A stretch of DNA of 60,647 nucleotides, from the IMG/VR virus record IMGVR_UViG_3300005805_000094, positions 1 to 60,647 of that record. One strand, given 5' to 3'. Within the stretch, counting starts at the first letter, position 1. Every line of letters starts with the position of its first letter. Positions 1 to 11,458 of the stretch are shown here, one piece after another. Origin of the DNA: a virus. Its lineage: Duplodnaviria; Caudoviricetes. The notes below the pieces were generated by a model. The model was not told the origin of the DNA, ran no database searches, and worked only from the letters and a program-made list of their open reading frames with translations. Made by a program: the position numbers and the translations under genes.

Positions 1-45
1 TGGGTTGGCGAGAACGCTCATATGGAGTGGTTGCTTAATAGATAA
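1..45 (+). CDS. 3' end of small early ORF (partial)
   Basis: Open frame WVGENAHMEWLLNR* ending just before the same hairpin that follows other early ORFs. Confidence 0.4.
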   Translation, partial: WVGENAHMEWLLNR

Positions 46-50
46 ACAAA

Positions 51-89
51 CCCGAAGGGGTGGGGCGAAAGCCCTGCCCCGACAAGGGG
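51..89 (+). terminator. GC-rich hairpin family copy 1
   Basis: CCCGAA-GGGGTGGGGC-GAAA-GCCCTGCCCC-GACAAGGGG; related copies at 3141, 3511, 3793. Confidence 0.6.
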
Positions 90-98
90 TGGCAGAGG

Positions 99-157
99 CC
101 AAGGAAAACGCTCGCCAAAATAAATCCGAATTATCTTGATGACCATATTTTTGGGAA
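99..157 (+). repeat. ~60-bp unknown repeated motif copy 1
   Basis: AGGAAAACGC..GCnAAATAAATCC..ACCATATTTTtGGG; copies at ~1434, ~1921, ~4576. Confidence 0.8.
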
Positions 158-165
158 CCGGGAGC

Positions 166-196
166 AACTTTACATAATAAATAGTTATGTAAAGTT
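166..196. other. Symmetric XerD-arm (dif-like) palindrome
   Basis: AACTTTACATAA-TAAATAG-TTATGTAAAGTT; arms resemble the XerD half of dif. Confidence 0.65.
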
Positions 197-221
197 GGGC
201 ACCGGGCCGGCGGGTCGAAAG

Positions 222-244
222 TTATCCACAGCCCCTGTGGAAAA
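222..244. promoter_or_regulatory. Inverted pair of DnaA boxes
   Basis: TTATCCACA (222-230) and TGTGGAAAA (236-244), both fit TTWTNCACA. Confidence 0.7.
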
Positions 245-270
245 AAATTTAAGAAACTTGCGGTTTTGAC

Positions 271-299
271 TTGCAATTGTATGACATAGCACCTATAAT
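271..299 (+). promoter_or_regulatory. Early sigma70-type promoter
   Basis: TTGCAA-17-TATAAT with TGTATGACA in the spacer and an A-tract upstream. Confidence 0.7.
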
Positions 300-320
300 T
301 GACATATGGAGGTAAACAAA

Positions 321-572
321 ATGAGAACATTACAAGCAGAACTAAATCGTTTTAATCGGAAAGCATTTGACGCAGGCTACGCCTACGCCTATGCCCAGAT
401 TAAAAGTCGGGCAGAAATTACTAAAGTTGCGCCCGAATTATCAGATAAAGAATTGTTAGAAGCGTGGGATAGCGCAGACATCGGATTAGTAGATGACAAC
501 GGCTATGCCTTTAATAACGAATTACTACTAGACCAATTCATAGCAGGATACGAAAGCGCATACGAAAACTAA
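321..572 (+). CDS. Hypothetical early protein
   Basis: ORF with GGAGG SD before ATG 321 (track start 306). Confidence 0.8.
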   Translation: MRTLQAELNRFNRKAFDAGYAYAYAQIKSRAEITKVAPELSDKELLEAWDSADIGLVDDNGYAFNNELLLDQFIAGYESAYEN

Positions 573-577
573 AAAAA

Positions 578-616
578 TATCGGGTCTGAGGTTGTCAAAC
601 AATCTCAGACCCGATA
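578..616. repeat. Inverted repeat overlapping a promoter
   Basis: TATCGGGTCTGAG..CTCAGACCCGATA enclosing TTGTCA, with TAAAAT at its right end. Confidence 0.7.
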
Positions 617-653
617 AAATTAAATTAACAAAACAAAACAGAGAGGGCACAAA

Positions 654-1016
654 ATGAAAACAGCGTTACACGTAAGAACAAACGGAGACATACTAGAAAC
701 AGACCTAGAACCAAACTCGCTACAGGCTTTGCAATTTGCCGTCAATGGCTTAGTGCAGGCAATTGACATAGACGAGTTCACAATGTGGTGCAACGATGAA
801 GGCAAAATCTTAAACTTGCCTCACAACCCATTAGGGCAAGCGTTGTGGACATATCGCTACGGAAACACTGACTACATTGTCGGCGATATTGTAATCACTG
901 GTGGCACAGACGCAGAAGGCGAAACTCTCGGACTGACTAGAAGCCAAGTTCAGAGACTGCGCACCGTTGCGCAAGCCGTCAGGCACTATGTAGAACCCCA
1001 CATTGAGGTTCTGTAG
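654..1016 (+). CDS. DUF3846-like protein
   Basis: LQALQFAVNGLVQAID..MWCNDEGKILNLPHN..IVGDIVITG pattern. Confidence 0.75.
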   Translation: MKTALHVRTNGDILETDLEPNSLQALQFAVNGLVQAIDIDEFTMWCNDEGKILNLPHNPLGQALWTYRYGNTDYIVGDIVITGGTDAEGETLGLTRSQVQRLRTVAQAVRHYVEPHIEVL

Positions 1017-1077
1017 AAAATTAAAATAATCGCACTCGCGAGTTGTAAAAGGCTCGCGAGTGTGATACACTATTATT

Positions 1078-1242
1078 ATGAACAAGACACAAGAACTCAC
1101 CCAACTATTGGACAATATGGAAGTGCCCGAAGGGAGAAAAGGCGACTTAGGTTGGCTTGCCCGAAATCTGGCAATCCGCAACTCAGAGCACCCCGACTTT
1201 ATGAGGGCAAGAAATCTTGTATCCGAGTTGCGAAACTCTTAA
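1078..1242 (+). CDS. Leaderless small protein (54 aa, MNKTQELTQLL...), not in ORF track
   Basis: TG-n-TACACT extended -10 a few nt before ATG; clean frame to TAA. Confidence 0.65.
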   Translation: MNKTQELTQLLDNMEVPEGRKGDLGWLARNLAIRNSEHPDFMRARNLVSELRNS

Positions 1243-1262
1243 AAGTGTGATACACTATTATT

Positions 1263-1403
1263 ATGAACAAAACACAAAACACAAAAAAGCGCAGAGGGTG
1301 GAACGACGCTGACGCGCGGGCATTCGCCGACGGGCAGCGCCTTCGGGCAGCGACAATCCCGGGCAAGCGGAAGGCAGCACCGTCAGCCCGAGAGTGGAAC
1401 TGA
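1263..1403 (+). CDS. Leaderless small basic protein (46 aa, MNKTQNTKKRRGW...), not in ORF track
   Basis: Same GTGTGATACACTATTATTATGAACAA promoter/start block as 1078. Confidence 0.6.
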   Translation: MNKTQNTKKRRGWNDADARAFADGQRLRAATIPGKRKAAPSAREWN

Positions 1404-1433
1404 CGCGAGGACGGCCGGGTGCCAAGCCAGCCC

Positions 1434-1495
1434 GAGGAAAACGCTGCGCAAAATAAATCCGAAATATAACAACTACCATATTTTGGGGAGACGGG
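1434..1495 (+). repeat. ~60-bp unknown repeated motif copy 2
   Basis: GAGGAAAACGCTGCGCAAAATAAATCCGA..ACCATATTTTGGGGAGACGGG. Confidence 0.8.
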
Positions 1496-1528
1496 AGCAA
1501 GTGCCGGGGCAAGCGGGCCGGTCAATAC

Positions 1529-1557
1529 AGTGTATCACAGAATAATTAGTTTGTCAA
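1529..1557 (-). promoter_or_regulatory. Leftward promoter
   Basis: TTGACA-17-TACACT with TG extension on the minus strand. Confidence 0.65.
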
Positions 1558-1662
1558 CCTGAAAAAAATTTATTTATTTTTGTTTTGAGGTTGGTTTTTG
1601 TCTTACAAGGTCTTACAATGAAATAAGTGAGGAATAAGCCTCACTCTTACTAGGAGGTAGTA

Positions 1663-1812
1663 ATGGCATTAGAGATACCCGAGAAAGTTAGCGATATGGC
1701 AAAATCGCTGGCAGAAGCATTACAAGAACTTGCGTTTACGCCAGGCATACCGAAAAGCCAAGAAATGTGGCTGTTCAGTGTCGCCGAGACTTTAGGCGAA
1801 ATTTACAATTAA
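1663..1812 (+). CDS. Small protein (49 aa, MALEIPEKV...), not in ORF track
   Basis: AGGAGGT SD; promoter TTGGTT-17-TACAAT at 1591-1619. Confidence 0.75.
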   Translation: MALEIPEKVSDMAKSLAEALQELAFTPGIPKSQEMWLFSVAETLGEIYN

Positions 1813-1821
1813 ACCCAAGAC

Positions 1822-1886
1822 TGTGTAAGGGGTAGCGTTATGGCGAGAAATCAGGTCGCCCTAAAAGAAGGTCTACCCCTTACACA
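1822..1886. other. Long stem-loop
   Basis: 14-bp TGTGTAAGGGGTAG/CTACCCCTTACACA stem with inner GGCGA/TCGCC hairpin. Confidence 0.6.
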
Positions 1887-1920
1887 AGAAAGGGGGCGGC
1901 CGGGTGCCGAGCCCAGGGTC

Positions 1921-1977
1921 AAGGAAAACGCCACGCGCTAAATAAATCCATTTAAAACGGAACACCATATTTTGGGC
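1921..1977 (+). repeat. ~60-bp unknown repeated motif copy 3
   Basis: AAGGAAAACGCCACGCGCTAAATAAATCC..ACCATATTTTGGG. Confidence 0.8.
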
Positions 1978-1991
1978 GCGGAGGCAGGGGC

Positions 1992-2022
1992 AACTTTACA
2001 TAATAAATAGTTATGTAAAGTT
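1992..2022. other. Symmetric XerD-arm (dif-like) palindrome
   Basis: Identical to 166-196. Confidence 0.65.
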
Positions 2023-2035
2023 CGGGGGCACGGAC

Positions 2036-2064
2036 CGAACATATGTTCGCCGAACAAGTGTTCG
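2036..2064. promoter_or_regulatory. Tandem LexA (SOS) boxes
   Basis: CGAAC-ATAT-GTTCG and CGAAC-AAGT-GTTCG match the Gram-positive/actinobacterial CGAAC-N4-GTTCG box. Confidence 0.8.
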
Positions 2065-2122
2065 GGCAATAGGTAAGTCGGCGAGGCTTTCGCCCCACCG
2101 ACCCGACCCGATTATCTGAGTG

Positions 2123-2443
2123 CTAAATCCTTTCCCACATATGCCCACCGAAATCTAACAATTGTGGAATTACAATTTTGGTCTGAATTTGTCGGCAATT
2201 CTTAAACGGCTTAATGCTTTCATTGAGATAGCGACCAATTGACACCGATGTCATTAACTCAGTGAATTCGTCAAAATCTACTCCGTCATATTCGTAAGTT
2301 TTGCCACTAATGAAAGTTACCGAAAGAGTTCCCTTTGTATAATAGAGTTTGCCATTCTCTATGTCGTAGGTGTCAGTTTCGCCACTGACGAACTCAATTC
2401 GGGTAACTGCTTGACTTGTTAGGCTTTCTATTGCGATACGGAT
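2123..2443 (-). CDS. KTSC domain protein with non-canonical (ATC) start, not in ORF track
   Basis: TLSVTFISGKTYEYDGVDFDEFTELMTSVSIGRYLNESIKPF KTSC pattern; AAGGAGGT SD 5 nt before ATC; in-frame TAA just upstream. Confidence 0.7.
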   Translation of the reverse strand: MRIAIESLTSQAVTRIEFVSGETDTYDIENGKLYYTKGTLSVTFISGKTYEYDGVDFDEFTELMTSVSIGRYLNESIKPFKNCRQIQTKIVIPQLLDFGGHMWERI

Positions 2444-2551
2444 AACTTACCTCCTTGTAAGAGTGGCGTTTTTGCCACTAATAAAATTGTACCACACTGT
2501 AAGACAAAAATGACACATTTTGACAAGTTTCTGAAATTTTTTTTTACGCTA

Positions 2552-2565
2552 CGAACAAGTGTTCG
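2552..2565. promoter_or_regulatory. LexA box
   Basis: CGAACAAGTGTTCG. Confidence 0.75.
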
Positions 2566-2710
2566 CCAGACGGCATTTTGGCTTTGCTGTATAACAGCCT
2601 ATTAGACGCATTAGGAAGCGTTTTGAGAGGCTCTAAAAAAAATAAGAGACTAGGGCAAAGATAGACCACTGTCTAACAACCTGACGCATCTGGAAGCGTC
2701 TGGAACGGGG

Positions 2711-2785
2711 CGAACATATGTTCGGTCGGCAACTTTACATAACAAATAGTTATGTCAAGTTGAGGGCGGGGCGAACAAGTGTTTG
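2711..2785. promoter_or_regulatory. LexA box + XerD-arm palindrome + imperfect LexA box
   Basis: CGAACATATGTTCG (2711-2724); AACTTTACATAA-CAAATAG-TTATGTCAAGTT (2731-2761); CGAACAAGTGTTTG (2772-2785). Confidence 0.75.
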
Positions 2786-2824
2786 GGGGTGTGAAATATG
2801 TTACACAAAAGTTACACAAATAAC

Positions 2825-2853
2825 TTGACAAATGTCTAACAACCTGATACACT
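2825..2853 (+). promoter_or_regulatory. Early promoter with TGTCTAACA spacer motif
   Basis: TTGACA-17-TACACT. Confidence 0.75.
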
Positions 2854-2898
2854 GTATTTAGTGAGGTAAAAGGCTTCACACTTAGGAAGGGGAACAAA

Positions 2899-3138
2899 AT
2901 GGAAGGAATTATCGGGAACAGGGTGGCAATGCCAGCCAACCCAACAGCGTGGCTTATCGCCAACGCACGCAAGGGAGCAATGCTCTACACACGAGACGGG
3001 CAGACGGTGGCAATCATCAACGCCAACACGGTCTACACAGACCCAGACACGGGCGCAAAATTGCGACCACTCTACGCCTCAGAGGGCAAAGGGCGAAGGG
3101 TCTACGAGCCTCGCCCAACACGCCCAATGCTGGACTAG
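2899..3138 (+). CDS. Hypothetical early protein (paralog of 4879..5289)
   Basis: Promoter and SD upstream; shares TAWLIANA.xGAM motif. Confidence 0.8.
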   Translation: MEGIIGNRVAMPANPTAWLIANARKGAMLYTRDGQTVAIINANTVYTDPDTGAKLRPLYASEGKGRRVYEPRPTRPMLD

Positions 3139-3140
3139 AA

Positions 3141-3180
3141 CTCCCCGAAGGGGAAGGGTGAAAGCCCTTCCCCGAAGGAG
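3141..3180 (+). terminator. GC-rich hairpin family copy 2
   Basis: GGGGAAGGGT-GAAA-GCCCTTCCCC right after the stop codon. Confidence 0.6.
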
Positions 3181-3289
3181 GGCGACAGAGGCAGACACGG
3201 GCGACGACGGGCAAAAAAAAAGTTAGAAATAACTTGCTTTTTGTTTAACAAGATGATACAATGAAACCAACAACAACAAAGGAGAAAAA

Positions 3290-3508
3290 ATGCACGAACA
3301 AGGGATACAAGACAGAAACCTAGTAAGTATGAAGGGGACGCCGAGGAGCGTTTTTGCCAATGGCAAAACCGTAGAAATCTGGTGCTCAAGCCCTACGGGC
3401 GACAGTTCAGACACCTCAATCCTCACTCTTACTTGCCTCACAAGTCAGCAGGCGGACATAATCGCCGAGACGTGGCGCAAAGTCTGGGGACTTCCACACT
3501 ACAACTAG
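3290..3508 (+). CDS. Hypothetical early protein
   Basis: AAGGAG SD, promoter at 3234-3262, hairpin after stop. Confidence 0.8.
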   Translation: MHEQGIQDRNLVSMKGTPRSVFANGKTVEIWCSSPTGDSSDTSILTLTCLTSQQADIIAETWRKVWGLPHYN

Positions 3509-3510
3509 AC

Positions 3511-3552
3511 CTCCCCGAAGGGGTGGGGCTTGCGCCCCACCCCGACAAGGGG
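3511..3552 (+). terminator. GC-rich hairpin family copy 3
   Basis: GGGGTGGGGC-TTGC-GCCCCACCCC. Confidence 0.6.
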
Positions 3553-3656
3553 CGGCCAGAGGCAGAAATCGGCGAGCAAAGAAAAAAATAATTAGCCGAA
3601 AATGCTTGACAAATTTTTAAAGTGTGTTATACTAGTATTCAGGAGGGAAGAACAAA

Positions 3657-3791
3657 ATGACACGAAAAGAACAAAACAAAATCACGAGGGAGACGCACGA
3701 GCGTGTAGAGATATACGACTGGGCGCTAGACCCCGAAATAAACGAGGACTTCGGGCAGTGGCACGAGGAACTCGCGCAAGACGACTACTAA
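3657..3791 (+). CDS. Small acidic protein (44 aa, MTRKEQNKI...EIYDWA...), not in ORF track
   Basis: TTGACA/TATACT promoter at 3606-3633, AGGAGG SD, hairpin after stop. Confidence 0.7.
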   Translation: MTRKEQNKITRETHERVEIYDWALDPEINEDFGQWHEELAQDDY

Positions 3792-3792
3792 A

Positions 3793-3826
3793 TCTCCCGA
3801 AGGGGTGGGGCGCGAGCCCCGCCCCA
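3793..3826 (+). terminator. GC-rich hairpin family copy 4
   Basis: GGGGTGGGGC-GCGA-GCCCCGCCCC. Confidence 0.6.
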
Positions 3827-3872
3827 GGAAGACGACAGCCCCAAGGGATTGTTGCGCCCAAGGGCTAGACGC

Positions 3873-3891
3873 AACTTTACATAACTATTTA
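3873..3891. other. XerD-arm half-site
   Basis: AACTTTACATAA-CTATTTA: same arm and spacer as the full palindromes, second arm lost. Confidence 0.5.
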
Positions 3892-3924
3892 TCTTGGGTT
3901 ACACCGAGGAAGGAAAGGAGAAGA

Positions 3925-3987
3925 GTGTTTGTTGGGTTAGGGCTAATGGTCTACGGGCTGTATTGGTTAATTAAAAAAATAATTTAA
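3925..3987 (+). CDS. Possible 20-aa membrane peptide
   Basis: AAGGAG SD before GTG; hydrophobic MFVGLGLMVYGLYWLIKKII. Confidence 0.35.
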   Translation: MFVGLGLMVYGLYWLIKKII

Positions 3988-4052
3988 TTTAGTTGTAATT
4001 TGTTTAACATAATGCTATACTGTAATGGCGGAGAGAAAGGAAGAGGAGAACA

Positions 4053-4145
4053 ATGGTCATAGAAATTTATGATTGGGCGTGCGCAGTCCCGGTGGCGGTT
4101 GCCGTCGTAATTGTGTTCATACTCAAAACAAAAAAAGTTAAATAA
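4053..4145 (+). CDS. 30-aa membrane peptide (MVIEIYDWACAVPV...), not in ORF track
   Basis: GAGGAG SD, promoter at 3993-4021, hairpin downstream. Confidence 0.55.
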   Translation: MVIEIYDWACAVPVAVAVVIVFILKTKKVK

Positions 4146-4154
4146 TCTGAGGGC

Positions 4155-4300
4155 CGAGCCTCGCGGGTGGACAAGCCACCTGCGGGGCTCGCTCGCGGGC
4201 GATGACCGGCACCGGCGCAGGACAGCCCAAGGGAAAAGTGAGGTCTGACGTCAGGTCTTTATTTTCCGCACGAGGAAGGGAAGGGAAGAGACAGTCTCTC
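4155..4300 (-). ncRNA. Candidate sRNA with a pyrimidine-rich anti-SD-like tract
   Basis: Minus-strand TTGACT-17-TACACT promoter (4306-4334), no credible ORF, hairpin at 4155-4192. Confidence 0.35.
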
Positions 4301-4403
4301 TTTATAGTGTATCACATATCGAGCACAAAGTCAAGGGGAAAAATATAAAAAAAATATATATTAATTAGTTGCTATTTGTCTAACACCGTGCTATACTGTA
4401 ATT

Positions 4404-4535
4404 GTAAAGTTCGCAGGTAACCCCTCGCGAACAGACTGTGAGCATATGCCTACGGCGCGGGCACGAGGGCGGTCGGGCGATAAACCCCGATAAACTCGGA
4501 TGACACAGGCAGTGGGTGAAAGCCCCACGTGAATT
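4404..4535 (+). ncRNA. Candidate structured ncRNA
   Basis: Promoter at 4369-4397 followed by several stems and no ORF with an SD. Confidence 0.45.
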
Positions 4536-4575
4536 CCTAGGGCGGCGGGCCAGCGAGTCCGGGGCCCGACGGCCC

Positions 4576-4640
4576 AAGGAAAACGCCGTGCGCTAAATAA
4601 ATCCGATATTGGTGGAACACCATATTTTTGGGAGACGGGG
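4576..4640 (+). repeat. ~60-bp unknown repeated motif copy 4
   Basis: AAGGAAAACGCCGTGCGCTAAATAAATCCGA..ACCATATTTTTGGGAGACGGG. Confidence 0.8.
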
Positions 4641-4646
4641 GCCGAC

Positions 4647-4737
4647 CGAACACTTGTTCGCCGAACACTTGTTTGGGGGTGCGCGACCACTCTGCGTGGT
4701 TGTTAGGTGAGCCTAACAAAATTGCCTCTGTGGATAA
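4647..4737. promoter_or_regulatory. Two LexA boxes, IdeR/DtxR-like palindrome and DnaA box
   Basis: CGAACACTTGTTCG (4647), CGAACACTTGTTTG (4662), TTGTTAGGTGAGCCTAACAA (4700-4719), TGTGGATAA (4729-4737). Confidence 0.7.
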
Positions 4738-4878
4738 CTTCGTGCGCTTGTGCGCGCGTGGCGTGGCCACTTGCGCGCGCGTGGCGTGGCAATTTTCGCC
4801 TATATATGACTAAAAAAAAATAAAAAAAATCGTAAAAAGGTTGTTGCTATTTGTCTAACAATGCGGTAGAAAATAGGT

Positions 4879-5289
4879 ATGACAACAACGAGCCACAACC
4901 GCGAAACCCTCGCTACTCGTTGCGTCATAGTAAAGGGTAATGAAATGTCCGAATACGGAATTGCCGAAACTGGCAAAAGCAACAGCAACACCTACGCAAT
5001 GCGCGACTACTCGCGCAAGGCAACTAAAGAGAATACGCCAGTGCGCTATATCACTCGCGTCAGTGAGCCAGTCAATGCCACCGCGTGGCTCATTGCTAAC
5101 GCTCACAATGGCGCAATGGTGCGCACGCTCAACGGCGTTAAGCACTACGAAATCGGGCACGCACTCGGCGTATTTGACAAGACAACCGAGACTACGCACT
5201 ATCCGCTTATGCCTAAGCGCGGTGCGCGTCGTCGCGGTGCGCGTGGCGTATCGGTTGAGCGTGCGTTGTCAATTTACGACAACGACTAG
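4879..5289 (+). CDS. Hypothetical early protein
   Basis: ORF downstream of promoter 4844-4872; paralog of 2899..3138; start may be 4945. Confidence 0.75.
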   Translation: MTTTSHNRETLATRCVIVKGNEMSEYGIAETGKSNSNTYAMRDYSRKATKENTPVRYITRVSEPVNATAWLIANAHNGAMVRTLNGVKHYEIGHALGVFDKTTETTHYPLMPKRGARRRGARGVSVERALSIYDND

Positions 5290-5298
5290 AAACCGTTA

Positions 5299-5399
5299 GC
5301 GCGAGATGTCGCGAGTGTGAACCCCCCCCACACTCGCGACACTCGCAAGGTTCACGAACTCAAAAGCGTGAGCCTTGCGAGTGTGAAAGTCTCACACTC
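5299..5399. repeat. Nested CACTCGC/GCGAGTG palindromes
   Basis: TGTCGCGAGTGTG..CACACTCGCGACA overlapping CACTCGCAAGG..CCTTGCGAGTG. Confidence 0.6.
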
Positions 5400-5429
5400 T
5401 TAACAACAACAACGAAAGAGAGAAAACTA

Positions 5430-6071
5430 ATGTTCACTTACGGAATTGGCAAAACCGCCAAACGACACACAATCAAACCGAAGCGCGCGCGCGTAATGCT
5501 TGCGCGTTTTGAGCGCTGGCTAGATAGCACTCAAGGCGCGTCAGTGTTCTTTACTGTGCTCACTTGCTTACTCACAACGCTAGTTGCGTTAGCGATAACG
5601 CAAGAGCGCACAAATTTTGCGATGACACTCTTTAGCATTGTGTCTGTGTTCGCGATACTCGCGACCATTGGCGCGCTAATAGTCAGTGATGAGACAAGCA
5701 AGCGCACCACGAAACAATGGCGCGCTATTTTCGCGCGCGAATACAACGCGCAAGCGAAAGAGAAACTCACACTCTCGCAAGAGTTAGAGCGCGAAACTGT
5801 CGCGCGTAAAGAGTTGAGCGCACTACTCGCACGAGTTGAGCGAGACGCACAACTAGAGCGCGAGAACCTAGAACACAACTTGCGCGCCTATAAGCGAGAC
5901 CTAGCGAGTAATCGTCAAAACTACTCGCGCGCACTTGAGACGGTAAACGAGTTGCGCGAGTTAATCGCGAGTTATGAAAGCCAGTTGCGCGAATTATCAG
6001 GCGCGCTATTTGACGCAAAAGTAAATAGTGGCGATATTGACTTTACGAATTACGGGAAAGACATCGACTAG
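5430..6071 (+). CDS. Membrane protein with two TM helices and a coiled coil
   Basis: Two hydrophobic stretches followed by heptad-rich E/R/L region. Confidence 0.75.
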   Translation: MFTYGIGKTAKRHTIKPKRARVMLARFERWLDSTQGASVFFTVLTCLLTTLVALAITQERTNFAMTLFSIVSVFAILATIGALIVSDETSKRTTKQWRAIFAREYNAQAKEKLTLSQELERETVARKELSALLARVERDAQLERENLEHNLRAYKRDLASNRQNYSRALETVNELRELIASYESQLRELSGALFDAKVNSGDIDFTNYGKDID

Positions 6072-6305
6072 GCAACACTCGCGCACGATAGGCGCGCACA
6101 CTCTCGCAATCGTTGAGAGTGTGCGCGCCTTTATCGTTTACGCGCTCACACTCTCGCGCAATCTCTCGCGCTCACACTCTGAGCAAGGCAAGCGCCCTAC
6201 CGCAAAAGGCGCGCCACAATCGCGCCAGACGCGCGCAAGGCACGCGCCTAGTGTCATACAAGCCCAGACAATTTTGGCACGCTTAAAACGCGTCTAAACG
6301 CGGCT

Positions 6306-6390
6306 TGTTAGGCTGACCTAACAGCGGGCGAACAAGTGTTCGCCGAACAAGTGTTCGGTCGGGGACACTTATCCACAGCCCTGTGGATAA
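6306..6390. promoter_or_regulatory. IdeR-like palindrome, two LexA boxes, inverted DnaA box pair
   Basis: TGTTAGGCTGACCTAACA (6306-6323); CGAACAAGTGTTCG x2 (6329, 6344); TTATCCACA-GCCC-TGTGGATAA (6369-6390). Confidence 0.75.
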
Positions 6391-6516
6391 ATACCCCCCC
6401 CTATCTGACCACGCTGAGCGTTCGAGTGGGCGCCGCACTAAGCACTCCCCAAATCTGGAGCCTAATTCACCTGTATAGGTAGCCTTGCCTAATCCTTATA
6501 CTTGATATCATAACAA

Positions 6517-10040: not shown

Positions 10041-10131
10041 TACCAAATTGACACCAGCGGGCGCTAAGTGTCCGTGTTCTCCGGTAAACAATAATCCATT
10101 TTGCGATTCAAACCAAGACGATGACGACTAG
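10030..10131 (+). CDS. Possible 33-aa Cys-rich peptide
   Basis: Fills the terS-terL gap, overlapping both; CPC..FC. Confidence 0.3.
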   Translation: MMIDTKLTPAGAKCPCSPVNNNPFCDSNQDDDD

Positions 10132-11458
10132 AGAAAACGTTCGCGCGCAACTTGCGAGTCTTGCTGACTACAAAGTCCCTTGCGGGATAAACCTTCCTCA
10201 CAACATGCACCCCAAACAGGGCGCGTTTTTAACATGGTCAACAACCAGAGAGGCCTTATATGGTGGCGCTGCTGGTGGAGGTAAGTCTGACGCCTTACTA
10301 ATGGCCGCATTGCAGTACGTATGCATTCCCGGGTATTCAGCACTTCTTTTACGACAAACATATCCACAGTTAGCGGGTCCTGATGGATTTATCGACCGAT
10401 GCAATGCATGGCTGTCGGGAACAGATGCAACGTATGTTGGAACAAACAAACGATGGACATTCCCGTCTGGCGCAACACTGTCATTTGACCACTGTGAAAG
10501 AGATGACGACAGATACAAGTTTCAATCTTTTGCTTATCACTTTGTTGGAGTAGACGAATTGACTCAGTGGAAGACGGACCGTGTTTATCGATACGTAGGA
10601 TTTTCCCGAGTTAGAAAACCATCAACCTCTGATGCGTTGCTCAGGTGCCCAACTTGTGGCATGTCTTCGGCGGATATCCCTCTTCGTGTGAGGGCTGCCA
10701 CCAACCCTGGAGGCCCAGGCAATAACTGGGTGTACGAGCGTTTCATCCTTGGGAAAACTCAAGAAAGAAAATTTATGCCTGCAAAAATTTCGGATAACCC
10801 CTCTCTTGACGCGGGCACATACATCAAGTCTTTGGATGAATTGGACGCAATAGAGCGAGCAAGATTGCTTGACGGAAACTGGGAAGTTCGAGAAGAAGGC
10901 GGGATGTTCAAGCGAGAGTGGTTTACAATAACTGGCGTCTTTCCAGAAGATATGCAAAAAGTTCGCTATTGGGATTTGGCTGCTACTGCACCCAAACACG
11001 GCAGTGACCCAGACTGGACGGTTGGCGCCTTGGTGGGTCACAAAGAAGGAAGATATTTTGTTCTTGATGTTCGACGGATGAGGGGCACCCCTTATGATGT
11101 TGAAAAGTTAATCAAAATCACATCGGAAGAAGATGGGATTTCAACAAGGATTGTTATGGAACAAGAACCCGGTTCTTCTGGGGTAAACGTGATTGACCAC
11201 TACGCTCGGCATGTAGTGCCAGGCTTTAACTTCAAAGGTCAAAAATCAAACACATCCAAGAAAGATAGAGCAGGCGTTTTTTCCGCTGCGTCTGAGGCGG
11301 GTAACGTCATGTTGGCTCGAGCCACTTGGAATACTCCTTTCCTAGATGAATGCGAAGTGTTTCCCTACGGAGCCCACGATGACCAAGTCGACGCGATATC
11401 GGGCGCAATCCAAGCCCTTGTCTCACGAAAAATGAAACAGGTTAGAATTATTGTATGA
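10121..11458 (+). CDS. terL: Terminase large subunit
   Basis: Walker A YGGAAGGGKS, Walker B VGVDE, ATNPGG coupling motif, nuclease WDLA..HDDQVDA. Confidence 0.95.
   Translation: MTTRENVRAQLASLADYKVPCGINLPHNMHPKQGAFLTWSTTREALYGGAAGGGKSDALLMAALQYVCIPGYSALLLRQTYPQLAGPDGFIDRCNAWLSGTDATYVGTNKRWTFPSGATLSFDHCERDDDRYKFQSFAYHFVGVDELTQWKTDRVYRYVGFSRVRKPSTSDALLRCPTCGMSSADIPLRVRAATNPGGPGNNWVYERFILGKTQERKFMPAKISDNPSLDAGTYIKSLDELDAIERARLLDGNWEVREEGGMFKREWFTITGVFPEDMQKVRYWDLAATAPKHGSDPDWTVGALVGHKEGRYFVLDVRRMRGTPYDVEKLIKITSEEDGISTRIVMEQEPGSSGVNVIDHYARHVVPGFNFKGQKSNTSKKDRAGVFSAASEAGNVMLARATWNTPFLDECEVFPYGAHDDQVDAISGAIQALVSRKMKQVRIIV

Follow-up and report, generated by a model that had tools for sequence, protein, structure and literature searches.

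Palindromes resembling the XerD half of bacterial dif between the early-gene cassettes of a tailed phage: candidate landing sites for a host recombinase

The virus record IMGVR_UViG_3300005805_000094 of IMG/VR (Duplodnaviria; Caudoviricetes), analysed here over its entire length of 60,647 bp and hereafter called the window, opens with an early region (1-6400) arranged as a string of small cassettes, each one comprising a sigma-70-like promoter, at least one short gene and a G+C-rich hairpin. The gaps between the cassettes are composed of few motifs, namely a palindrome whose arms resemble the XerD half of bacterial dif, a C-repeat, LexA-type boxes, DnaA boxes and TTAGG-N-CCTAA palindromes. The dif-like palindrome is the subject of the present analysis; it may serve as a landing site for the XerD-type tyrosine recombinase of the host. 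As for the replicon itself, CheckV rates the window as 38% complete. It encodes a WhiB protein whose nearest Atlas clusters are those of Actinomycetota and phages, a terminase, a candidate tape measure protein and also glycosyltransferases, whereas the runs containing it are lake and freshwater metagenomes of 14 studies and its terminase relatives reach 105-106 kb. Altogether, the WhiB protein, the terminase and tape-measure frames, the freshwater runs and the length of the relatives indicate that the window is probably a fragment of a large tailed phage of a freshwater actinobacterium, with a genome probably above 100 kb.

The palindromes of the window are real. The pattern ACTTTACATAA-N7-TTATGTMAAGT is found at 167-195, 1993-2021 and 2732-2760, and 100 dinucleotide-preserving shuffles contained it 0.00 times on average, the largest count being 0. 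An earlier, sequence-only reading had already singled out these three sites, which hold against the shuffles, although it placed each start one base too early; it had also recognised the arm motif, but with arms shorter than the perfect ones, which extend over 13 nt at 165-197, over 12 nt at 1992-2022 and, with one A/C mismatch, over 13 nt at 2730-2762. The half-site that it had noticed near 3873 proved to be an exact arm together with its spacer. Positions 3872-3892 are complementary to 177-197 at 21/21 nucleotides, comprising the exact arm and the whole 7-bp spacer in inverted orientation, and the second arm is absent, as its expected place (TCTTGGGTTAC) agrees with the arm at 3/11 positions (manual count). 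This one-armed unit sits in a 90-nt piece where the close relatives L129 and L118 share a 48-codon gene cassette that is absent from the window. Exact 12-nt arms number 7 in the window, all of them within 166-3884, and the remaining 56 kb hold 14 arm matches with two mismatches and 0 with one, the shuffle mean at the looser setting being 13.0 for the whole window. The sites are 16-21% G+C inside G+C-rich flanks, and they are intergenic, located 60-100 nt upstream of sigma-70-like promoters without any overlap with their -35 or -10 elements. Regarding their immediate neighbours, site 1 lies 15 nt past C-repeat copy 1 and 24 nt ahead of a pair of DnaA boxes, site 2 stands between C-repeat copy 3 on its left and two LexA-like boxes on its right, and site 3 has one LexA-like box on either side.

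Table 1. Coordinates of the dif-like sites and of other features of the window (position 1 is its first nucleotide)
Feature	Position	Strand	Description
Site 1	165-197		CAACTTTACATAA-TAAATAG-TTATGTAAAGTTG; perfect 13-nt arms, polar 7-bp spacer
Site 2	1991-2023		31-nt core identical to site 1; perfect 12-nt arms at 1992-2022
Site 3	2730-2762		Spacer CAAATAG; right arm TTATGTCAAGT (C variant)
One-armed unit	3872-3892	-	On the minus strand, TAAATAG-TTATGTAAAGT-TG; spacer and right arm, no second arm
C-repeat copy 1	96-167	+	GGAAAACGC ... AAATAAATCC-N14-ACCATATTTT ... GGGAGCA
Further C-repeat copies	1429-1500, 1917-1990, 4572-4642		4 copies in the window altogether
Paired LexA-like boxes	2036-2064		CGAACNNNNGTTCG; 15 nt apart
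Other LexA-like boxes	2552-2565, 2711-2724, 2772-2785, 4647-4660, 4662-4675, 6329-6342, 6344-6357		
DnaA box and imperfect inverted partner	222-244		TTATCCACA; adjoins site 1
Other DnaA boxes	4729-4737, 6369-6390		The latter an inverted pair
KTSC-domain gene	2123-2446	-	Located between sites 2 and 3; no other early-cassette gene is on the minus strand
Terminase gene	10121-11458		
2518-codon open reading frame			Taken for the tape measure protein; candidate by size and position only

Scanning metagenome contigs yielded 19 stretches, 17 of which are relatives of the left end of the window. These 17 contigs and the window together provide 30 full sites, with the caveat that some contigs are near-duplicates (L120 and L124 are 99.9% identical). 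When spacers of 5-9 bp were allowed, the inter-arm spacer was still 7 bp in 30/30 full sites (an 11-7-11 geometry), and the arms varied solely at arm position 7, which is either A or C. The spacer follows the consensus YAAATAG, with the variants TAAACAG, CTAAAAG, CTGATAG, TAAAAAG and CGAATAG, and occurs in both orientations. Every full site can be set so that AG adjoins one of the arms and, with the sites oriented in this way, the C variant is found on the AG-side arm in 8 of them and on the other arm once, jointly with the first. Being nearly confined to the AG-side arm, the C variant indicates that the site has a polarity. The same AG accompanies the untruncated lone arms: in 12/12 of these it adjoins the arm (as CT when read on the other strand), and AATAG is retained in most. 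The functional unit would therefore be about 15-17 nt long, (A)ATAG-TTATGTMAAGT-TG, that is, a XerD arm plus the adjoining part of the centre, and a full site is, on comparison of the aligned copies, two such arms sharing one spacer. Two stretches from gut and other metagenomes (L114 and L126) were discarded as relatives, being unrelated intergenic hairpins without the AG spacer end.

The exact form of the palindrome was found in no other IMG/VR contig, and a variant with G/C in the arms occurs in 2 contigs of a single low-G+C phage. Among 80 terminase-related loci the arms gave only single matches with one mismatch, and the 5 related records contain one exact arm, inside a gene. A palindrome of the relative G001 was considered as a counterpart of the sites and set aside, as it sits directly after gene ends and is probably a terminator.

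The likeness to dif resides in the arms. The C variant, TTATGTCAAGT, is the XerD arm of the predicted dif of Frankia alni, the actinobacterial seed of Kono et al. (PMC3025954), and the A variant, TTATGTAAAGT, forms the end of the dif sites predicted for Caulobacter, Bordetella and Geobacter, in 3 of the 49 rows of Table 1 of Carnoy and Roten (PMC2731167). Thus both variants are letter-identical (11/11) to published predicted XerD arms, as the sequence-only reading had suggested, although those dif sites may not be that of the host. Moreover, the sole variable arm position corresponds to dif position 24, one of the two positions (23 and 24) described as 'more variable' within the XerD arm (Carnoy and Roten, PMC2731167), and both variants conform to a XerD arm of the TTATGTnAAnT type. 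The left arm of the sites is the inverted XerD arm, with agreement at just 6/11 positions with CCCGCCCATAA, the XerC-like arm of the phage contig L137, and at 5/11 with CACGCCGATAA, the XerC arm of F. alni (manual counts), which bears out the XerD-arm/XerD-arm symmetry claimed before. On the other hand, the 7-bp spacer had been taken as a sign of binding without recombination, which such a length does not by itself imply, given the attP of phage VGJphi, described as a single functional dif-like site of 29 bp with a 7-bp centre (PMC4246890, PMC5357621), and the 6-8 bp given for the central regions of Xer sites. With two inverted 11-nt arms around a centre within that range, the sites of the window total 29 bp, like the attP of VGJphi.

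The unit is also carried by other phages. When IMG/VR was scanned for ATAGTTATGTMAAGTTG, 16 loci were obtained, seven of them low-G+C, against an estimate of about 7-14 chance matches. In L140, L149, L144 and L150, tandem direct units with the same A/C variation lie in the interval that separates the terminase operon from the first early promoter, with spacings of 10 nt and 29 nt in L149. Contigs L137 and L138 represent another WhiB phage, with genes for SSB, a YqaJ exonuclease and ArdA, in which the unit lies between pairs of DnaA boxes and beside two LexA-type boxes, a composite present twice in L137 (632-716 and 3517-3602, record G129). One of the L137 copies, CCCGCCCATAA-TGCATG-TTATGTAAAGT, is 23/28 identical to the predicted dif of F. 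alni, combines a 6-bp centre with an arm that is XerC-like at 9/11 positions, and is flanked by DnaA boxes like site 1 of the window; it was the only match with up to 5 mismatches to that dif in 1.38 Mb of loci. The two arms of L137 have the same direction and, 2.9 kb apart, bracket the ArdA antirestriction gene in a record of 42,232 bp that CheckV rates as 100% complete and that has no PF00589 match. The local genes common with the window are only WhiB (L137 and L138) and one small open reading frame (L141). As the unit occurs in lineages with almost no local genes in common, a conserved host protein fits it better than a phage-specific one. In L136, a unit is followed 20 nt on, at the end of the contig, by an iteron-like array (3650-4009) in which a 30-nt repeat stands in tandem in at least 10 copies. 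In a BLAST search of 50,697 records of cultured phages, JCL1032 and ICP2 were rejected as carriers of XerD/XerD sites, since they offer only weak A+T-rich matches.

A tyrosine recombinase gene was sought with PF00589, for which the control genomes all scored. The family gave 0 matches in the 60.6-kb window at E<=1, and it was absent from 5/5 related records and from 5/5 further records that have the unit or a palindrome like it, including one with a completeness rating of 100%. The phage-encoded tyrosine recombinase outside the window, which the earlier reading had offered as an alternative, thus finds no support, in a window that is a 38% complete fragment or in 10 other records. Concerning rearrangements, no site-to-site joint was found in the Logan contigs of four runs (X2, X3, X4 and X6), where the listed joints are at other repeats; as the contigs break at the sites, this lack is no evidence either way. 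The related contigs are all collinear, with no inversions or rearrangements among them, and the segment with the KTSC-domain gene has one orientation in all 6 contigs holding both of its sites. These two sites are inverted with respect to each other in L117, L120 and L128 and direct in the window and in L129. Two findings hint at recombination. The KTSC gene, which is on the minus strand in the window, shares the direction of its neighbours in G001 and G002, relatives without the sites. The other is a contig, L130, which joins the left flank of site 2 of the window, via one site, to about 4680-4830, and lacks 2.7 kb. Its junction is inside some 110 nt of repeated sequence (C-repeat and site), so that homologous recombination explains the deletion equally well. 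The cassettes are bounded by sites, and no module was seen in a new context among the collinear contigs.

The sites have three kinds of neighbour. The C-repeat is bipartite: its blocks AAATAAATCC and ACCATATTTT are always 14 nt apart and its flanks are conserved in the 29 copies of the window and related contigs. Its layout is promoter-like, as would be expected for an unrecognised sigma factor or polymerase, and it was not found in the terminase relatives G001 and G002, in the stretches examined. The palindrome or LexA-type boxes appear 12-25 nt downstream of it; by count, of the 29 copies, 13 have a site next (after 15-21 nt), 6 have a LexA-type box there and 10 have neither. The LexA-type boxes, CGAACNNNNGTTYG, are of the perfect Gram-positive/actinobacterial type and often paired 15 nt apart; the window has 9 of them, spanning 2036-6357, which give 16 strand matches for 0.25 expected. 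Perfect DnaA boxes number 4 in the window for 0.59 expected, and twice they form inverted pairs 2-4 nt apart. Such an inverted pair recurs in L020, L021, L027, L028, L039, L042 and G002, and relatives retain one LexA-type box beside it, about 4 kb upstream of the terminase gene.

We propose, with an even chance of being right, that the sites are mimics of the host dif bound by host XerD. They would copy the XerD half of bacterial dif and thereby offer, on the DNA of the phage, landing sites for the XerD-type tyrosine recombinase of the host, with paired arms facing each other across 7 bp three times, one unit standing alone, and all of them placed between small early-gene cassettes. Since the sites adjoin LexA-like and DnaA boxes, the early region seems to be assembled from target sites of conserved host proteins (XerD-like sites, LexA-like boxes and DnaA boxes). 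Binding by XerD is itself inferred from the match of the arms and, given binding, two kinds of consequence would share the probability about equally: Xer recombination, in the form of cassette gain and loss, multimer resolution or integration at dif, and a non-recombining role as a roadblock, in the unloading of SMC (structural maintenance of chromosomes) complexes or in regulation. A more ambitious version, which we hold to be rather unlikely, is that tailed actinophages hand recombination over to the host, the dif mimics letting XerCD move the early (anti-defence) cassettes or integrate the phage at dif, with the LexA boxes as a repressor switch and the DnaA boxes as accessory or replication sites.

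Several observations weigh against XerD as the ligand or against its recombining at the sites. A distinct XerC arm was found only at the L137 site, outside the window; the left arm of the sites is not XerC-like, and we know of no Xer reaction on a XerD/XerD site. There are 3 or 4 copies per genome, mostly as direct repeats, which would be unstable if they recombined. The missing joints in the four runs and the missing rearrangements among related contigs point in the same direction, both being weak tests. The AG of the spacer is conserved beyond what, to our knowledge, XerD binding alone needs. No arm was found in G001 and G002, whose terminases are 86-87% identical to that of the window, over about 105 kb each, and the site is therefore dispensable, an accessory of one subclade. 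Neither does any actinobacterial genome carry the palindrome among 185,579 species representatives, and hence there is no sign of a prophage. The genome contigs that have it number 6; no actinobacterial one is among them and phage genes were not seen beside any, a weak test since the likely hosts are mostly known from fragmentary genomes. These matches comprise a family of longer perfect hairpins in two Dehalococcoidia genomes and one site in Lawsonibacter. The Lawsonibacter site, with identical 13-nt arms, was also dismissed: its estimated expectation is about 0.1-0.3, near chance, and it is not general in the order (2/121 genomes, the second match lying inside an ATPase gene).

The interchange of site and LexA box after the C-repeat suggests an operator, and the main alternative, possible if doubtful, is that the sites are operators of a dedicated non-XerD DNA-binding protein, of the phage or of the host, which controls the early cassettes and whose site is like that of XerD by coincidence. 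In its favour, the sites are intergenic, ahead of sigma-70-like promoters and 15-21 nt after a promoter-like C-repeat, a place that LexA-like boxes take at other copies; the sole divergently read gene, that of the KTSC protein, has sites 2 and 3 on its two sides, much like a repressor gene between its operators; the unit is found inverted, lone and in tandem direct form, with the varied spacings of L149; and site and C-repeat are both confined to one subclade. Coincidence has to account, however, for the identity of both arm variants to published XerD arms over all 11 positions, for a variation confined to dif position 24 and for a copy in L137 with full dif architecture. For a small helix-turn-helix protein, an invariant half-site of 15 nt is long, no regulator family appeared among 20 early proteins searched with Pfam and 10 with PHROGs, and the lineages carrying the unit have almost no local gene in common. 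It is also conceivable, although quite improbable, that a tyrosine recombinase of the phage encoded beyond the window uses the sites as its cores, inverting or excising early cassettes as lox or shufflon systems do. A 13-7-13 geometry with a polar spacer is what such an enzyme would require, and the inverted sites flanking the KTSC segment in three contigs, the reversal of the KTSC gene relative to the site-less relatives and a contig (L130) that resembles a 2.7-kb deletion between two C-repeat-plus-site composites could all be its traces. Against this stand the absence of PF00589 from the window and all 10 other records, one of them rated complete, the single orientation of the KTSC segment in the 6 two-site contigs, a deletion that homologous recombination in the repeat explains as well, and the presence of the unit in unrelated phages.

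A sub-case of the proposal that XerD binds the sites, and the one favoured by the earlier reading, is that it never recombines them and acts there as it does at the XDS of Bacillus subtilis, unloading or stalling loop extruders of the SMC or MksBEF type or stopping FtsK. This analogy would agree with XerD/XerD symmetry and lone arms, which offer binding without a XerC partner, and with 7 arms gathered within 3.7 kb; the conserved polar centre and the full dif-like site of L137 point instead to a logic of strand exchange, and we consider it unlikely. Finally, a purely structural role, as an RNA hairpin (for termination or processing), as a DNA-unwinding element of an origin or as the ends of a small mobile repeat, is highly improbable. 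The RNA of the sites is predicted to fold with -17 to -27 kcal/mol (z-scores of -4.1 to -7.2), their G+C content is low within G+C-rich flanks, DnaA boxes stand beside some copies and a 30-nt tandem array follows the unit of L136. Yet the arms do not covary, as the A-to-C change affects one arm only in 7 sites, breaking the pair, and both arms in 1, which ruled out the RNA hairpin; lone arms cannot form one, and no U-tract follows the sites. An origin needs one copy and not four, and the flanks of the copies have nothing in common beyond the C-repeat. Rfam gave no match above the gathering score, and a promoter was likewise rejected, since only site 1 gives a 9/12 match.

If host XerD does bind the sites, several known systems provide a frame for them. 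Mobile DNA that uses the host Xer system is on record, with examples among filamentous and tailless phages, in genomic islands and in plasmids of Acinetobacter. The nearest in kind are the integrative mobile elements that exploit Xer (IMEXs), such as VGJphi, which likewise carry a mimic of host dif and no integrase of their own, with the 29 bp and 7-bp centre already mentioned. One-armed versions made of an arm and the central region exist among them, like the lone units here, and a 17-bp 'right-armed' dif-like attP is described for the IMEXs of vibriophages. The window shares this combination of dif-like sites, full or one-armed, with no integrase found, in what is a 38% complete fragment; integration at host dif with hybrid flanking sites was not found, by a weak test. 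In contrast, IMEXs are described as small filamentous or tailless phages of Proteobacteria with 1-2 XerC/XerD sites, integrated at dif, whereas the window belongs to a putative tailed actinophage with three symmetric XerD/XerD sites plus lone units and with no integrated copy found. In the plasmid dif (pdif) modules of Acinetobacter, several Xer-type sites also bracket small accessory modules on one replicon, and the two like-oriented sites around the ArdA module of L137 recall this arrangement. The pdif sites pair a XerC with a XerD arm, unlike the XerD/XerD sites of the window, whose spacer is 7 bp long and whose copies are for the most part directly repeated. The centre of pdif sites is 6 bp and their orientation alternates.

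The XDS of B. subtilis are described as 'dif-like sequences' where XerD unloads Smc-ScpAB and an array of which blocks translocation. They also resemble dif, employ XerD for a purpose other than dimer resolution and take effect when arrayed, and they differ in being chromosomal, in the terminus region. Multimer-resolution sites of the cer type are again extrachromosomal Xer cores, with 11-nt arms, a centre above 6 bp (8 bp in cer) and an adjoining accessory sequence, but their XerC and XerD arms are distinct and there is one copy per plasmid, and the C-repeat of the window also occurs without a site. The perfect 13-nt inverted arms and the short polar spacer of lox and FRT sites are found in the window as well. 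Those systems have their own recombinase gene and usually a single site, and no recombinase gene was found here, in the window and 10 records.

A limited full-text search of the literature found no report of dif mimics or of Xer use in tailed phages or actinophages. Should XerD bind here, a third mode of dif mimicry would be represented by a common group of lake phages, with many copies and symmetric arms wired together with LexA and DnaA sites. The spacer plus XerD arm would then be a simple signature for predicting hosts from their dif, and the sites a tractable test bed for the action of XerD on non-dif DNA. If host XerCD moreover moves the cassettes or integrates the phage, Caudoviricetes and Actinobacteria would thereby have their first system of an IMEX-like or dif-module-like kind.

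Some further features of the early region deserve mention. In the frame of the KTSC-domain gene, which begins immediately behind a stop codon, none of the codons ATG, GTG and TTG precedes residue 65, although the Pfam match extends over residues 37-80. An in-frame ATC has a strong AAGGAGG 8 nt ahead of it. Because this motif precedes the ATC and the Pfam match begins before the first usual start, the gene likely uses a non-canonical start codon. Cassettes were compared with L129, which is about 94% identical to the window and extends 5.8 kb further left. Entire cassettes differ between the two, at 3222-3503 and at 324-560, a 72-codon gene of the window (3290-3508) being absent from L129 and another (306-572) being replaced there.

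Two additional families of palindromes are found in the gaps. Those of the form TTGTYAGG-N4-CCTAACAA occur in the window at 4701-4720 and 6305-6323 and, as three in tandem, in L123 (1696-1770). The TTAGG boxes were tried as IdeR iron boxes and rejected, having 4-5 mismatches in 19 positions, near chance. Palindromes of the GAGGTCnGACGTCnGACCTC type appear once in the window (4232-4267) and after lone units in L123 (2340-2365 and 2405-2430). Finally, two Dehalococcoidia genomes (L085-L090, L093 and L106) possess long perfect palindromes with the outer arms ACTTGACATAA...TTATGTCAAGT and variable palindromic centres, amounting to 9-10 arms per genome for 0 of a control word. Next to one of these copies are part of a tyrosine recombinase gene and a transposase-like frame, and another heads an operon that ends in a ParA-like gene.

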